Below are positions 57,889 to 63,795 of a stretch of 64,000 nt of DNA, piece after piece (the stretch's first letter is position 1; each line of letters opens with the position of its first letter). The notes below the pieces were generated by a model. That model was not told the origin of the DNA. It did not search any database and saw only the letters and a list, made by a program, of their open reading frames with translations. The translations under genes and the position numbers were made by a program. The DNA is from an uncultured Verrucomicrobiae bacterium (lineage in GTDB: Bacteria; Chlamydiota; Chlamydiia; Chlamydiales; Rhabdochlamydiaceae), in assembly GCA_963731265.1 (NCBI GenBank), contig CAVSUE010000002.1:64001-128000 (forward strand), in the 5' to 3' direction.

Positions 57889-59577
57889 CTATAAATCATC
57901 ATAGCCGCGTGTCACACGGAGGACTTCGCTCGAAGCAGTGAGTCCTTGGATCGCCAATAAGGCTCCTTCTTGGCGCAAGCCGGTCATCCCGCCAGCAATA
58001 GCAACTTTCTGTAACTCGAGAGCGTCGGGGCTCACTAACAGCCGCCGTTTTATCGCTGAAGTCACCGGCATTAATTCGTAGATACCATGGCGCCCTTTGA
58101 ATCCGGAACCGAAGCAATGGGAACATCCCTGACCTTTGAATAATTTCCCATCCGCGAGCATATCATAGGTGATTCCTAGCTCTTTTAACTCTTGTTCAGA
58201 AGGGGTATAGCCAATGCGGCAAAGGGGACAAATGAGCCGCACGAGGCGCTGTGCCAGTACGCCGACAACGGAAGATGTCAAGAGGTAGGGCTCGATCCCC
58301 ATGTCGACAAGCCGGGTGAGCGCGGAAGGGGCGTCGTTGGTATGCAGAGTACTCAATACGAGGTGCCCTGTCAAAGAGGCCTGAATGGCGATTTCGGCAG
58401 TTTCTTTATCTCGGATCTCCCCGATCATGATCACATCAGGATCTTGCCGGAGAATATGACGCAAACCGGTGGCAAAGGTGAGGTGAATTTTTGGGTTCAC
58501 GCCGATTTGTGCCATTCCCTGCAGTTTATATTCGACAGGGTCCTCAATGGTCATGATGTTCATTTCTGAATTGTTGATTTCGGACAAGGCGCTGTAAAGC
58601 GTTGTGGTCTTGCCACTTCCGGTAGGGCCGGTAACGAGAACTATTCCTTCGCTCAAATTGATCAATTTCGTCAGAGGTGATAAGGTAGTCACCCGCATGC
58701 CGATGTTATTCAAACCCAATAAGACGTTTCCTTTGTCGAGGATCCGCAAAACAATCCTTTCTCCAAAAACAACGGGGACCGTGCTCACGCGGAAATCGAT
58801 TTGCCGGCCTCCCATGTTAAGCTTGATTCGCCCATCTTGAGGCAAGCGGTGCTCCGCAATATCAAGGCGGGCCATCACTTTGATGCGCGTGATCAGCTGA
58901 GATTGAAATTCTTTCGGAGGGGCGTGCCGTTGTTGAAGAACACCATCGATTCGATAACGGACGTCCAGTCCATTTTCCATTGGCTCGAAATGGATATCGG
59001 AGGCGCCTTGTTGAATTGCTTCTGCAAGCATCACGTTGAGCATGCGGATGACAGGAGAGTCCGCATTTTTTTCCAGCAGATCGTAACCGTCGTCCTCTTT
59101 CGTCTGCGCAGATGCATTTTCCGGCTGCAAGCTGGCGATGTATTCGGAGGCTTCATTTTCTTTTTGATGATAGCACACCTCGATCGCCTCCTCGAGAGCG
59201 GCTTTAGGAGCGATGACTTCGCTGATTTCGCAATGGGTCATGCAGCGCACTTCTTCGAGCGTTTCCAGATCGAACGGATGGGCCATGGCGATCAATAAGA
59301 CACCTTCCTTTTCTTCTAGTGGCAAAAGAAGATGGCTTTTCGCAAAGGAATAGGGAAGAGGAGTGATCTTTTCTTTGACGTATGGAAATTGGGAAAGATC
59401 GTTAAAAAAAGGAATGCGAAACCTCTTGGCAATCTCTTCAGGCGTGCCCCAATTTTTTTGAGGCAATGGCTTGAACGCGGCCTCGGACGCAGAAGCTGGT
59501 TTTGTTTTTCCTTTGAGAATCTTGACCAGTTCTTCGAGCAGTTCCTTGACCTTGGAGGACGCAGCAGACTTAGACAT
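57889..59577 (-). CDS. gspE: Type II secretion ATPase
   Basis: ASDIHFEP, LPQDGR, GPTGSGKTTTLY, LRQDPDVIMIGEIRD, STLHTND, tetracysteine motif; start probably 59577. Confidence 0.97.
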   Translation of the reverse strand: MSKSAASSKVKELLEELVKILKGKTKPASASEAAFKPLPQKNWGTPEEIAKRFRIPFFNDLSQFPYVKEKITPLPYSFAKSHLLLPLEEKEGVLLIAMAHPFDLETLEEVRCMTHCEISEVIAPKAALEEAIEVCYHQKENEASEYIASLQPENASAQTKEDDGYDLLEKNADSPVIRMLNVMLAEAIQQGASDIHFEPMENGLDVRYRIDGVLQQRHAPPKEFQSQLITRIKVMARLDIAEHRLPQDGRIKLNMGGRQIDFRVSTVPVVFGERIVLRILDKGNVLLGLNNIGMRVTTLSPLTKLINLSEGIVLVTGPTGSGKTTTLYSALSEINNSEMNIMTIEDPVEYKLQGMAQIGVNPKIHLTFATGLRHILRQDPDVIMIGEIRDKETAEIAIQASLTGHLVLSTLHTNDAPSALTRLVDMGIEPYLLTSSVVGVLAQRLVRLICPLCRIGYTPSEQELKELGITYDMLADGKLFKGQGCSHCFGSGFKGRHGIYELMPVTSAIKRRLLVSPDALELQKVAIAGGMTGLRQEGALLAIQGLTASSEVLRVTRGYDDL

Positions 59578-62149
59578 TGCTATTACCGAACAAGGATTTG
59601 AAACTGTTTCTAAAGTATTTTTTTCGCTCTTTTTCCTGAGCTTCCACCACGCGCTGCAGGTATTCAGGAATATCCCCGGGCCGTTTTTTGACTTCTTCAT
59701 TGCGGACTGCGATCAGCTGCTCTTCCGGATCGAGAATGATGGTAGGAGTGATGAAGATGAACATTTCCGTATTATTGTTCGTGAGCTTCGTGGAACCAAA
59801 CAGTTTCCCCAACCCTGGGATATCGCCGAGAAAAGGGATCTTATCTTCGTTGTCCTGAGAGGATTTTCGGCGCAAGCCGCCCAGGATGACTGTTTGCCCG
59901 TCCAAAACGCGCACTTCATTTTCGATATGGCGTCGGTCGACCAGTGGGCGGTCATCCTGGTTGTGATGTTTTGTCGTGTCGAATGTGACATTCGTCTGCA
60001 TAGTGACGAACCCCTTCCCATCGCACAGTTCATCATCATAGTCTGGAAGATGCACCGTTGGAGTCACAATGATCGTAATCCCGAATTGCGCTCGGGAAAA
60101 TGATTTTTCAAAGGCTATCGTCCCCTTGCTGGTGTCTACAGGCGCCGCACCATTATTGATCGAGATCTCCTCAACGATGGAGATGGTAGCCGGCGTTTGA
60201 TTGACGGTAATAGTGGAAGGGGCTGCATTGAGCTGGACGTCTTCTTGCGACATTAGAAAGTTCAGCGCGAGGTCATAAGCGGGGAAATGCTTCGACTGCT
60301 TGCCATGGAGCAAATATTCTAGTACCCCTCGTCCAGTTGGCGCAAACTGGGATGTGAATAGGATTCCATTTTTCTTCGACCCCAGTTTCAGCATGTTCAT
60401 GCCATAGCTATTTTCATTTTTGATCCTCTTTTCAAATAGCATCACTTCGATCTGCACCATTTTTTTGGGCACATCCAGCTTGCGGAGCAGATCTTTGATT
60501 TTGGCAAGAGCGTCGCGGCGGACGACCATCAACAAATTTCCGGTCTTGGGGTCGGCAATAAAATGGTCGGACCCTTGTTCGATATCAAGAGATGCCGAGC
60601 TGCCTATCTTTAACGGCGGCGGCGCGACGACGAGCGGCGGCGTCGGAGGAAATCCGTCAGGAGGAGTTTTAAATTGGGGGCCTTGGGTGGCAAGACTGAA
60701 ATCGGTTTCTCTATTGGCCTCGCTGGAGGCCATTAAAAGAGAATTGTAGACTTTTTCCAGCACCTTGGCCAGATCGTCGGGATTGGAATGACGGCATGAG
60801 TACAAATAAACCGTCATTTCCGCAGGGTCATGCAGCTGCTCTTCCGTATCTTTGATGATTTTTTCCGCTCGACAGACAACCTCTTCCTGACCAATCAGAA
60901 TCAGCGCGTTTCCTTGGCCCAGGGAAAAGATGTTCAATCCTTCCTGTTCCGGTTTTCCAAACGGGGGTCGATTTTTTTCCATCGCTTCCCCAAAGAAGGA
61001 TTGTAGGATCTTTTCCATCTCTTTGGCAGCCATTTTGTTGATGGTGATGACGCGGGACATCTTCCCTTGGGCGTTTTCCCAAACCGTGTGATACAGATCC
61101 AGAAGTTTGACCACTTCTTCTTTGTTGGCAACAATCGCAATTTTCGGGCCGATTTGATAGATGAACGTCTGTTTGGCATCGGCAAATTTTTCAAAAAATT
61201 GAAAAGAACTCCTAATTTGCTCAACAGGCGGGTTAAAAACATAAAACATACGCGTATGGTCGGGTATCCATTGCAGCTGTAAAGGAGAAGACGCCATCGC
61301 CTGAATTGCTGACGGATCTTGTTTTAAGATGTAAAGCTGCCTCACATAATTATTGATTTTCTTTACACCGATTCCATTGTGGGAGAGGATGATCTCGAGC
61401 ATCTCGCTCCAAGATTCGCGCGGGATGGGGATATTGGAGTGCATATTTAATTTTAATGCAGCCATCTCGGGAGGGACAATAAAGAGATAATCGAGGGCTC
61501 CGTATTCCATCACAAGCTGGGCCAACGTTGTTTCTTCCTGGTCCCACAACGCATACCCTTCTTCATCTCTCTTCGCTTCATCGATAGCCGCATCGCGCCA
61601 TCGGATTTCTAAAGAATGGATCTGCTCTTTTACAAAATTGACTTGATGGAGAACGCTTTGAAACTCTTCCTCGGCTGAACCACCTTTCGCATAGAGTTCC
61701 CCCGCCTGCCGGTAATAAGTGATGAGCTCTAAGCGAAGAGCTGCCAACTGCTGATTGATCTCCCTAAGCATGATCTCAAAATTTCCAGCGTTTTCGGGAG
61801 ATTTTGTCCCATTCGCTATTTTTTCAGCGATGGTTTGAGAAAAGATGGCAGTAGGCACAAAACATAGTACAGAAGCGATTAGTATATATACCGAAACTGA
61901 ATCAAAAATTGGTTTTTGGCTGCGTTGGCTATGCAGCAACCTTTTTTTCTTCAACTCAACCAGTTCGCGCTCTGCATTGCGCTTCACCGGGAGATCAGAC
62001 GGGAGCCATGCAGTTGGCTCGCTTTTCGGAAAACATGCCGAGACTGAATCTCGAGCCTTGTGCTTGCACAAGAATCGCTCGCCCCAGACAAAAAATTTGC
62101 GCATCCGCCTGGCCAAATTCCCCATTTTTGGTTCCGTTTTGGTATTCAT
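59570..62149 (-). CDS. gspD: Type II secretion secretin with an 86-codon repeat-derived N-terminal insertion
   Basis: LDVPKKMVQIEV, DGQTVILGGL, KIPFLGDIPGLGKLF, FIFITPTI; the ATG overlaps the upstream stop (ATGA). Confidence 0.93.
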   Translation of the reverse strand: MNTKTEPKMGNLARRMRKFFVWGERFLCKHKARDSVSACFPKSEPTAWLPSDLPVKRNAERELVELKKKRLLHSQRSQKPIFDSVSVYILIASVLCFVPTAIFSQTIAEKIANGTKSPENAGNFEIMLREINQQLAALRLELITYYRQAGELYAKGGSAEEEFQSVLHQVNFVKEQIHSLEIRWRDAAIDEAKRDEEGYALWDQEETTLAQLVMEYGALDYLFIVPPEMAALKLNMHSNIPIPRESWSEMLEIILSHNGIGVKKINNYVRQLYILKQDPSAIQAMASSPLQLQWIPDHTRMFYVFNPPVEQIRSSFQFFEKFADAKQTFIYQIGPKIAIVANKEEVVKLLDLYHTVWENAQGKMSRVITINKMAAKEMEKILQSFFGEAMEKNRPPFGKPEQEGLNIFSLGQGNALILIGQEEVVCRAEKIIKDTEEQLHDPAEMTVYLYSCRHSNPDDLAKVLEKVYNSLLMASSEANRETDFSLATQGPQFKTPPDGFPPTPPLVVAPPPLKIGSSASLDIEQGSDHFIADPKTGNLLMVVRRDALAKIKDLLRKLDVPKKMVQIEVMLFEKRIKNENSYGMNMLKLGSKKNGILFTSQFAPTGRGVLEYLLHGKQSKHFPAYDLALNFLMSQEDVQLNAAPSTITVNQTPATISIVEEISINNGAAPVDTSKGTIAFEKSFSRAQFGITIIVTPTVHLPDYDDELCDGKGFVTMQTNVTFDTTKHHNQDDRPLVDRRHIENEVRVLDGQTVILGGLRRKSSQDNEDKIPFLGDIPGLGKLFGSTKLTNNNTEMFIFITPTIILDPEEQLIAVRNEEVKKRPGDIPEYLQRVVEAQEKERKKYFRNSFKSLFGNSNV
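61888..62145. mobile_element. 258-bp MITE-like element inserted in frame in gspD
   Basis: Terminal inverted repeats ATACCGAAACTGAATCAAAAAT / ATTTTTGGTTCCGTTTTGGTAT; length divisible by 3; no stops on the gspD frame. Confidence 0.8.
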
Positions 62150-63441
62150 GCCGCCCTCCGTTCCGAATTGGAGAAAATAGGCTTTCTCTTGCGCGCACCT
62201 TTGCCCTGCCCTTTTTCAACCTCGATAGGCAAGCTCACTGGATTCATGACTGTTCTCGTTTCGTCGAACAAATGTCCTTTGACAACGGTACGGCCCTGTT
62301 CTTTTTCTACTCCGTCAAAAATAAAAAGCTCTCCTTTCAACCGATGATGCAGATATTGTTCAATTTCTTCGCCGCGGCGTAAATTCCTCCAACCCGATGC
62401 CGTTTTGAGCAGCCAATCCCCTTGTTTGAGGACAACCCGCCTTTTTCCAAAAGAGCAGCTGACCTGACTGCTGCTTCGCAACCGGAAGGAGGAAGGCATC
62501 ATCTCCGGCTTTACTTGCATACGACCCTGGTTTTCTATCTCGATCTTAACCTGGGCAGGGGAAAACCCGGTTTCATCCCATATTTCGAGCTCTACAGTAT
62601 TGCCCGAGATCGATTTGACATGGGCAATAGGATGCTCCCGCTTTAACTCCTCAAAAGGGCAAACATGCCATTCTCCATTCTCATAATGCAGGTAATCGGA
62701 AACAGAAATAAAACAGGCATAAGTCGAACCTTCCGCAATTTCCAAAATAGCTTTATTCCGCCAAACTTCATATTCTCTTCCGCCGTATTTCTGGATCAAT
62801 AGGTCGTGCGGAAAAACTCGAGCTGACTTTAACGCCTTTGCAAACGGCTGGCCGGCGGAATGATACCGGGAAGGAGTGGCTCCCTGTTCCGAGATGACAA
62901 ACTGCCCCTTTTCTTCTCCCGCCAAGCCTTCTTTAGAGACGAGCTTTCGGCCCGCCTCGACGAGAACAGCACCATTTTCAAGCAAGATCGGCTTTACCCA
63001 GAGAGAAGTTACCTCTTCCGAAGAATGCAGCCCTTTCCCTTGCTCGCTCTCCTTCAAAAAGATCGCACGTCCATTCGCGACGCTGAACTGTTCTTTCCCA
63101 TTTTTTAATGAGATTAAAATTTTTGCTTCCTTGGAGTCGACGTCGGGGCGGCTGTTGTAAGCCATCAAGATCAGTTCATCTGCAAGGCGCGAGATCCAGC
63201 CCAAAGCATGGCGAGGGTGCAAGGCCAGCCCTCCAGATCCAATGGATTCGTAAGGGAAAAAAGAACGGCCTAATTTTTGGGAGCTGCTTCCAGAAATCAT
63301 CGTTTCTTGGCCTTTAAACGGGTAAAAAAAGAAAAAAAGGGGGAGGGCTACACTCAAAACAATCAAAAAAATTGCCGCACAATAGACAGACTGCTTGAGG
63401 TACCGGTCCATCTGTATGGATGTAGGAGGAAATATCAACAT
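62146..63441 (-). CDS. Membrane-anchored hypothetical protein upstream of gspD
   Basis: Likely start 63441 (GAGG upstream) or 63411; one N-terminal TM; the ORF-track extension to 63630 runs into repeat sequence. Confidence 0.8.
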   Translation of the reverse strand: MLIFPPTSIQMDRYLKQSVYCAAIFLIVLSVALPLFFFFYPFKGQETMISGSSSQKLGRSFFPYESIGSGGLALHPRHALGWISRLADELILMAYNSRPDVDSKEAKILISLKNGKEQFSVANGRAIFLKESEQGKGLHSSEEVTSLWVKPILLENGAVLVEAGRKLVSKEGLAGEEKGQFVISEQGATPSRYHSAGQPFAKALKSARVFPHDLLIQKYGGREYEVWRNKAILEIAEGSTYACFISVSDYLHYENGEWHVCPFEELKREHPIAHVKSISGNTVELEIWDETGFSPAQVKIEIENQGRMQVKPEMMPSSFRLRSSSQVSCSFGKRRVVLKQGDWLLKTASGWRNLRRGEEIEQYLHHRLKGELFIFDGVEKEQGRTVVKGHLFDETRTVMNPVSLPIEVEKGQGKGARKRKPIFSNSERRAA

Positions 63442-63596
63442 GCCTAAGACCTCATTGTCCAGAGAGAAGGAGTTTAGGGCATTTTTAAAAAAAACGAAAG
63501 GTGAATTATAGGAGAGGGGCGGGTAAGCCCGCCCAGAGGGCACGAGGTGTAGCGCGATGCAGCACGCGAACTGGTCGTATACTGAGTGCAAATATG

Positions 63597-63686
63597 AAGT
63601 TGGGGCCGAGTTTCGTACTCGGCCCCACATTGTTTTTGAAAATACCCGGCGCTTAAGGGCCGGGTTTCCGCCAGAGGACGGATGAA
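63597..63686 (+). repeat. Palindromic repeat family A, copy 6 (5'-truncated, diverged)
   Basis: AAGTTGGGGCCGAGTTTCGTACTCGGCCCC...CCCGGCGCTTAAGGGCCGGG...GAGGACGGATGAA. Confidence 0.92.
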
Positions 63687-63795
63687 AATGCCGACTAAGC
63701 CATTGGGCTACTTCTGAATCACGTTCTGTGTTAATCGGCTTGCAAAAAATAAAAAATAAGATTTAAATCACAATTAAGAATCGAGTTGAGGTTTT

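Follow-up and report, generated by a model that had tools for sequence, protein, structure and literature searches.

In a 64,000-nucleotide window from an uncultured bacterium of the Rhabdochlamydiaceae (assembly GCA_963731265.1, contig CAVSUE010000002.1, positions 64,001 to 128,000), a miniature inverted-repeat transposable element (MITE) lies at the very start of gspD, the gene for the type II secretion secretin. The element entered gspD in frame, adding 86 residues, and the gene stayed constrained. We propose, with a probability of about 0.7, that the MITE inserted at about the third gspD codon, that it is translated from the coupled ATG and cut away with the leader, and that the start site has since been unblocked. 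What is new in this account is that the gspD copy is old and that, by prediction, the substitutions it has gathered release the original start.

The insert is absent from all 29 related gspD loci, 16 of which come from the 18 congeners (G004 gave no match and G018 was left out). This alignment of GspD N-termini, a check set beforehand, bears out the preliminary description of this DNA, which had proposed a coding-compatible selfish element in frame: none of these orthologs has the 86-residue extension, and the genome contains many copies. The nearest ortholog, with a protein identity of 96%, starts MRYILASFLC and has an identical Shine-Dalgarno sequence and stop overlap. Among 11 database relatives, GspD is 761-785 amino acids (aa) long, and the best match, at 773 aa, equals 859 minus 86. 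Contigs from four of the eight runs examined (X1, X8, X9 and X15) are missing 267 nt and have 9 added, a net difference of 258 nt. Deleting the insert had been expected to restore the ancestral leader; the net difference is exactly as expected, but the natural empty allele reads MRYILASFLC and not MNILIASVLC. The target TA likely lay in a Tyr codon near position 3 of gspD. The gene is under purifying selection, alike in both sister lineages, and is not decaying, with 9 nonsynonymous and 40 synonymous codon changes on its own branch; the sister branch has 8 nonsynonymous and 40 synonymous ones, and a further 51 could be placed on neither.

The insert is a TA-duplicating, gene-less MITE and fits the TA-type class set out in PMC2229807; it has the following parts.

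61887 to 61888: intact copy of the TA target site; on the coding strand, bases 1-2 of the Tyr codon with which the host's own leader sequence takes up again.
61887 to 61912, plus strand: start-distal terminal inverted repeat, with 2 changes from the consensus in 27 nt.
61889 to 62144: MITE core, 256 nt with ends TACC...GGTA, defined from 16 aligned genomic copies and their consensus with nhmmer.
61954 to 62049: optional central module of 96 nt, present in the long form and absent from the short form.
62120 to 62146, minus strand: start-proximal terminal inverted repeat, eroded, with 9 changes in 27 nt from the genome consensus and 5 from a more conservative ancestor.
62145 to 62146: second target-site copy, now decayed to TT, immediately 3' of the ATG on the coding strand.

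These limits refine the bounds of 61888-62145 given in the preliminary description, whose net gain of 258 nt stands; the anatomy is a TA, the core and a decayed TA. In the copy alignment, the other long copies have a TA flank at the second target-site position, and the gspD copy has TT. The 22-mer imperfect inverted repeats do have 3 mismatches; drawn as arms of 25 nt (61888-61912 and 62121-62145), they are 84% complementary, and the terminal inverted repeats are about 26 nt long. The gspD copy folds with a z of -2.5 against shuffles, and the consensus with an energy of -133.6 kcal/mol on the coding strand. A 13-mer at 62038 resembling the left end had been taken as a sign of nesting. We reject this idea: the 13-mer is found in all aligned long copies, as the end of the optional module, and two of its matches to the left end are substitutions private to the gspD copy. 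Bits of the central module are found again in other repeats, for example at 63546-63575. To the earlier account we add that the TA target is duplicated, that the ends are of the IS630 type and that the start-proximal arm is predicted to have loosened.

Both forms of the family are suited to insertion in frame. The core measures 256 nt in the long form and 160 nt in the short form, which lacks the central 96 nt; with one duplicated TA, the net gain is 258 or 162 nt, both multiples of three. Consistent with the original observation, the 258-nt stretch has exactly this length and no stop in the frame of the 859-aa gspD open reading frame (ORF; 62149-59570). In the long consensus, built from eight non-coding copies, three of the six frames are open (shuffle mean 0.34, P 0.0015): the frame of the Tyr codon on both strands, and one more. 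Sister families in genomes G001 and G005 have no open frame and yielded 0 fusions among 13 and 12 copies. A Pfam search with two open frames of the element gave no match, and no transposase is encoded. Searches with the element returned nothing from Rfam up to E 1 and no match from a plasmid library; a scan of it gave no sigma-70 promoter match and two terminator-like hairpins, where shuffled sequences average 0.7.

The host gene has the following features.

59570 to 62149, minus strand: gspD, encoding the type II secretion secretin; 859 aa including the insert, compared with 773 aa in the nearest database relative.
61838 to 61888, minus strand: the leader's original hydrophobic stretch and cleavage region (residues 88-104), just before the conserved QTIAEK.
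62155 to 62160, minus strand: Shine-Dalgarno sequence GGAGGG, 5 nt 5' of the ATG, within the end of the upstream gene.

The gspD ORF matches the secretin family PF00263 (E 7.5e-34) as well as PF03958, and stands first in the run gspD-E-F-pseudopilin, with gspE and gspF intact. Its ATG at 62149 shares bases with the TGA that closes the upstream ORF at 62146, as reported earlier. The proposal that this ATG is the real start also gains support, for it has by far the strongest Shine-Dalgarno sequence of the 9 in-frame candidates; GGAGGG is kept in close orthologs, and its duplex with the organism's own 16S tail is worth -10.0 kcal/mol. Residues 88-104 align with ortholog leaders ahead of QTIAEK (hydrophobicity window 3.0), and the cleavage site is placed by ortholog N-termini. 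Translation of a 104-residue leader from the original coupled ATG is likely on this evidence, and the extra 86 residues would likely stay cytoplasmic and be lost with the signal peptide upon the predicted cleavage.

The family is widespread in these chlamydiae. Matches were found in 14 of 18 congeners and in 20 of the 41 genomes searched overall; the organisms with related loci are uncultured Chlamydiota of soil and bog, one of them labeled Candidatus Rhabdochlamydia. In the element's own genome (G000), the BLASTN search suggested in the preliminary description gives 12 matches at E<=1e-20, self included. By nhmmer there are 10 long copies including that in gspD, and the two methods together add four copies of the short form (about 164 nt each), two that are shorter still, and fragments. 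Genome G013 shows recent mobility of the family, with 40 scored copies that are 99-100% identical among 129 candidates. All 30 young G013 copies examined have TA at both flanks, with no strong broader target motif. One young copy there (L106) sits on a TA overlapping a start codon and splits the ATG of a leader-peptide gene from its Shine-Dalgarno sequence. Genome G036 has about 40 matches to the short form.

The ends of the element suggest how it moves. An intact IS630 in genome G016 (1122 nt, DDE_3/HTH_33) has ends identical to the family arms at 18-19 of 26 positions, and one IS630 end in G036 agrees with the G036 MITE consensus at 21 of 26 (our own count), whereas the majority of other IS630 ends reach just 7-15 of 26. 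IS630 elements of relatives open with TATAC-type ends, as the MITE family does. An IS630-type transposase acting in trans would very probably be the mobilizer; the resemblance suggests it and falls short of proof, being the same sort of evidence as that for RUP and IS630-Spn1 in the portion of PMC2229807 consulted. Two candidates were rejected: the IS630 of the own genome, whose ends differ, and a 935-nt G001 element with family arms (L182, 604-1539), in which just part of a different transposase-like ORF is present. Palindromic relatives of very small size, with ends of the TATACCC type, occur at G000:C1:1334157-1334240, C1:642739-642760 and C2:268261-268282, and are nearer to one end of the G016 IS630. 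The sole IS630 found in the burst genome (L138, G013:C5:256309-259719) has two MITE copies inside it and lies beside sequence that resembles what we take to be a group II intron end.

A census of 104 elements in 11 genomes gave 22 rows with an open frame across the element and at least 100 residues outside it. Ten rows, at 9 sites, are host-gene fusions with an upstream in-frame ATG: three in the own genome (gspD, a 348-aa membrane-anchored protein and a serpin), three in G001, two in G011 and one each in G002 and G003. All ten lie no more than 30 codons from the start of a protein with a hydrophobic leader, the element standing before the hydrophobic core in 7, splitting it in 1 and following it in 2. 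By comparison, 8.6% of the permissive TA sites of the own genome lie in the first 35 codons, and 2.5% do so in a protein that also has a hydrophobic leader; only 31% of the ORFs in this genome have a hydrophobic N-terminus. The leader bias of fusions in this MITE family is real. Among the other 12 rows, four have an ATG downstream of the element, which is then 5' untranslated, one has only a TTG, one is ambiguous, and three concern ORFs that are short or antisense; the last three belong to the young G013 burst and interrupt an IS630 transposase, an HTH-like ORF and a 106-aa ORF internally. Of 20 copies in G036, one precedes a hydrophobic leader, without an upstream ATG.

Two of the sites show further detail. 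In the gene for the 348-aa protein, a short element directly follows ATG-AGC (G000:C1:899115-899278, L047, L056; G003 L107), and the sister genomes hold different subfamilies in opposite orientations at the same TA, both in frame. Inversion does not explain the two orientations, since the copies share no derived change and belong to different subfamilies; either there were two insertions or there was a later conversion, and the site is possibly a hot spot or safe harbor. A third copy is found in G013, where it precedes the orthologous gene by about 40 nt. The 348-aa protein family (region G000:C1:892000-899300) has no Pfam match and at most 12 matches per congener, with 8 in the own genome, often in tandem. 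In the serpin gene (G000:C1:1303771-1304019, L049), a chimeric 249-nt element splits the signal peptide in frame; an extra TA preserves the frame, and the far end gives new Met codons ahead of what is left of the hydrophobic segment. The serpin ortholog in G003 has an empty site.

The gspD copy has changed far more than its relatives. It differs from the consensus at 29 of 260 sites, compared with 1-11 in the seven other cleanly aligned long copies, and has no indels, which are present in 9 of 10 non-coding copies (P 0.002 on the assumption that indels accumulate in proportion to substitutions, but only about 0.2 if they are per-copy assembly errors). Within it, 20 codon changes are nonsynonymous and 2 synonymous, which indicates that the peptide of the insert is unconstrained; it has no function under amino-acid constraint. 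Accelerated evolution is not needed to account for the divergence, given that four-fold sites differ by 0.25 between the sister genomes. Selection to weaken the entire hairpin was likewise rejected (P 0.43).

Nine of the changes, however, lie in the arm next to the start, within the 27 nt adjoining the ATG, a clustering that departs from random decay (P ~0.003). The predicted cost to open the region from -15 to +18 is 9.7 kcal/mol as observed and 32.6 with a consensus copy; swapping in the observed proximal arm alone brings it to 13.7, and nine empty orthologs range from 12 to 20. Simulated random decay gives 20+/-5, with 1 of 199 simulations as low as observed, and none of 170 reach this level from the conservative ancestor. 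Eight other genomic copies placed in the gspD context cost 15-33 kcal/mol, and the direction agrees in all six windows. Among the candidate starts, the original ATG is predicted to gain most, its cost falling from 35.4 to 8.5. These models predict that point mutations of the gspD copy unblocked its start site.

The gene may have survived as follows. The arms of a fresh copy would pair as a long helix over codons 2-10 and lower initiation; re-initiation coupled to the upstream stop would have supplied enough GspD for survival; and mutations in the start-proximal arm would then have been favored. Taken as a whole, we consider this sequence of events probable. With slightly less assurance, we expect that Sec recognizes the unchanged hydrophobic core behind the basic extension (net charge +11) and that signal peptidase frees an unchanged mature secretin. 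A broader idea, to which we give somewhat less than even odds, is that the family has been selected for coding compatibility, with lengths in threes and the Tyr-codon frame open both ways, that it is harbored in export leaders, and that the host tames each insertion through point mutations melting only the arm over the start.

A number of points weigh against this reading. The loss of folding over the whole element is what 29 random changes would give (the same P of 0.43), and the clustering in the start-proximal arm weakens to P 0.08 with the conservative ancestor. The opening-energy test was chosen post hoc, after the clustering had been seen; it is computational and assumes equilibrium folding. 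Applied to five other short-form fusions, it agrees in 2, is flat in 1 and is reversed in 2, both of which retain perfect arms. At 6.8 kcal/mol, a TTG at codon 71 equals the ATG in accessibility, albeit with a weak Shine-Dalgarno sequence (-4.8), and conservation of GGAGGG is not independent evidence, as these bases also encode the upstream protein. The 104-aa leader, whose translation and cleavage are predictions from the DNA, would as a Sec leader be about twice as long as the extended autotransporter leaders given as examples in the part of PMC2805444 consulted (53-55 aa). Signal peptides were called with a hydrophobicity window and by eye, and empty-site orthologs of the fusions were inspected at 4 of the 9 sites. 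Since the IS630 of the own genome has other ends, this genome has yielded no cognate transposase. Finally, the cytoplasmic protein PriA of the same genome has an in-frame insert of about 98 residues near its start (~G000:C1 517155-517523, L256), from an unrelated repeat family that also has TACC...GGTA ends; a leader is thus not required for an in-frame insertion to be tolerated. The preliminary description had attributed tolerance to removal of the extra peptide, which lies before the signal-peptidase site: the leader bias holds for all ten older host-gene fusions, but such removal is not the sole route, given priA and the 3 of 10 fusions within or after the hydrophobic core.

PriA also bears on an alternative in which gspD is translated from codon 1 and the element simply decayed neutrally, being the oldest copy or a member of an extinct subfamily, so that the freed start is luck and the leader bias reflects a general tolerance of N-termini. 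A divergence of 11% fits neutrality where four-fold sites differ by 25% between sister genomes, two changes common to both arms suggest an older master, priA shows an N-terminal insert without a leader, and young fusions survive with perfect arms. We nonetheless regard this alternative as unlikely, for neutral decay would have had to reach an opening energy below 198 of 199 and 170 of 170 simulated decays, the gspD-type arm occurs in no other copy examined, and all ten fusions are in proteins of the hydrophobic class that makes up 31% of ORFs.

Rather less likely still is that the element acts as a 5' untranslated spacer, with translation starting at a TTG at codon 66 or 71 to give a leader of 34-39 residues with a new basic N-region (KKKR), and with the upstream open frame merely inherited from the consensus. 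The changes T68K and N70R do form a basic cluster and open the region, the cost at codon 71 dropping to 6.8 kcal/mol from 22.9; the gspD frame is open in the consensus to begin with, and 30% of simulated decays stay stop-free; and several other copies directly precede a downstream ATG. Yet the Shine-Dalgarno sequences at the TTGs are weak (-3.8 and -4.8, against the -10.0 at the ATG), the copy is free of indels throughout, the biggest predicted gain in opening is at the original ATG, and coupling with the upstream stop favors codon 1.

That the extension has a function, either slowing or redirecting export like the extended signal peptide of an autotransporter or forming a hairpin that regulates gspD mRNA through RNase III, seems to us very improbable. 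Extended bacterial leaders with a basic N-domain are described (PMC2805444, in part), in keeping with the charge of the gspD extension; RNase III cleaves the MITE arms of Correia elements (PMC10969869, in part); and synonymous changes in the copy are fewer than simulated (P 0.04). Against this, the insert is missing from all 29 orthologs, it has no Pfam match, the consensus peptide already has a charge of +9, and the opposite orientations at the same site of another gene in two sisters mean unrelated peptides. An assembly artifact or incipient pseudogene is scarcely credible: although none of the eight runs examined spans the filled allele across its two junctions, the copy carries 29 changes of its own with the frame kept, selection on gspD is not relaxed, and gspE and gspF are intact. 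A 375-nt contig from run X22, 94% identical, reaches from gspD 27 nt into the element, below our bridging threshold of 31 letters, and hints at the filled allele in another strain. The G003 bin may be mixed (one contig is 99.5% identical to the own genome and six loci 79-94%) and was not used for dating.

Upstream of gspD, the neighborhood contains one further gene and a group of other repeats.

62146 to 63441, minus strand: upstream gene, no Pfam match; its stop overlaps the gspD start, and its listed start is 63630.

This gene probably starts near 63441 rather than at the listed position. A repeat cluster at 63513-63733, before the gene and absent from G003, adds 63 codons to the listed ORF; it holds a 95-nt palindromic family (~63594-63690; 44 genome matches at E<=1e-20, counting itself) and 30 nt from the MITE central module.

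The element works like the Rickettsia palindromic elements (RPEs) and is built like RUP or ERIC; it is not classed as an RPE. RPEs, compared here by their published description, are gene-less palindromes with an open frame that occur between genes and in frame in conserved genes of an intracellular bacterium, as the gspD element does (PMC10969869, PMC2229807; this and the following comparisons draw on parts of the cited papers). They are 105-150 nt long and their host genes are unrelated and often metabolic, whereas the chlamydial element adds 162 or 258 nt, strictly duplicates TA, has IS630-like ends and forms fusions clustered at export leaders. RUP of Streptococcus pneumoniae shares the TA target, arms resembling IS630 and insertion into IS transposase genes (PMC2229807), the last paralleled by the two copies within the G013 IS630. 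RUP is listed there as intergenic and without an open frame, in contrast to the three open frames and lengths in threes of the chlamydial family. Repeat fusions that touch signal peptides have been published (PMC2759123). In ERIC/RU-1, YPAL/RU-2 and Correia, however, the repeat itself supplies the hydrophobic signal, mostly in hypothetical ORFs (PMC2759123, PMC2229807), while the chlamydial element is hydrophilic and precedes a leader that a conserved gene already had; orthologs of that gene are empty, and compensation at its start is predicted. Autotransporters share the basic extension before a normal Sec signal; theirs comprises about 25 conserved extra residues, compared with 86 unconstrained, transposon-derived residues in gspD, and the signal part of EspP targets on its own (PMC2805444). 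We found no literature on chlamydial MITEs or compensatory arm erosion in a search whose scope did not extend to subscription journals and supplements; the text of PMC9723776 has no occurrence of MITE, miniature, palindrom or IS630, and PMC3733652 and PMC3184786 were consulted in part.

For annotation, odd long N-termini of exported proteins in these chlamydiae may be transposon-derived and call for caution. In-frame repeats in bacterial proteins are known chiefly from Rickettsia, and the reasons for their tolerance have been tested on very few genes. In this lineage, an ongoing burst can be studied beside old survivors and empty orthologs, with sister families of closed frame as controls. It opens the questions of what length of N-region Sec accepts and of whether hosts repair the cost of a hairpin by eroding one arm. 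If the broader idea of tamed insertions is true, it would provide a legible signature of selection on translation initiation, and natural Sec leaders of more than 100 residues.

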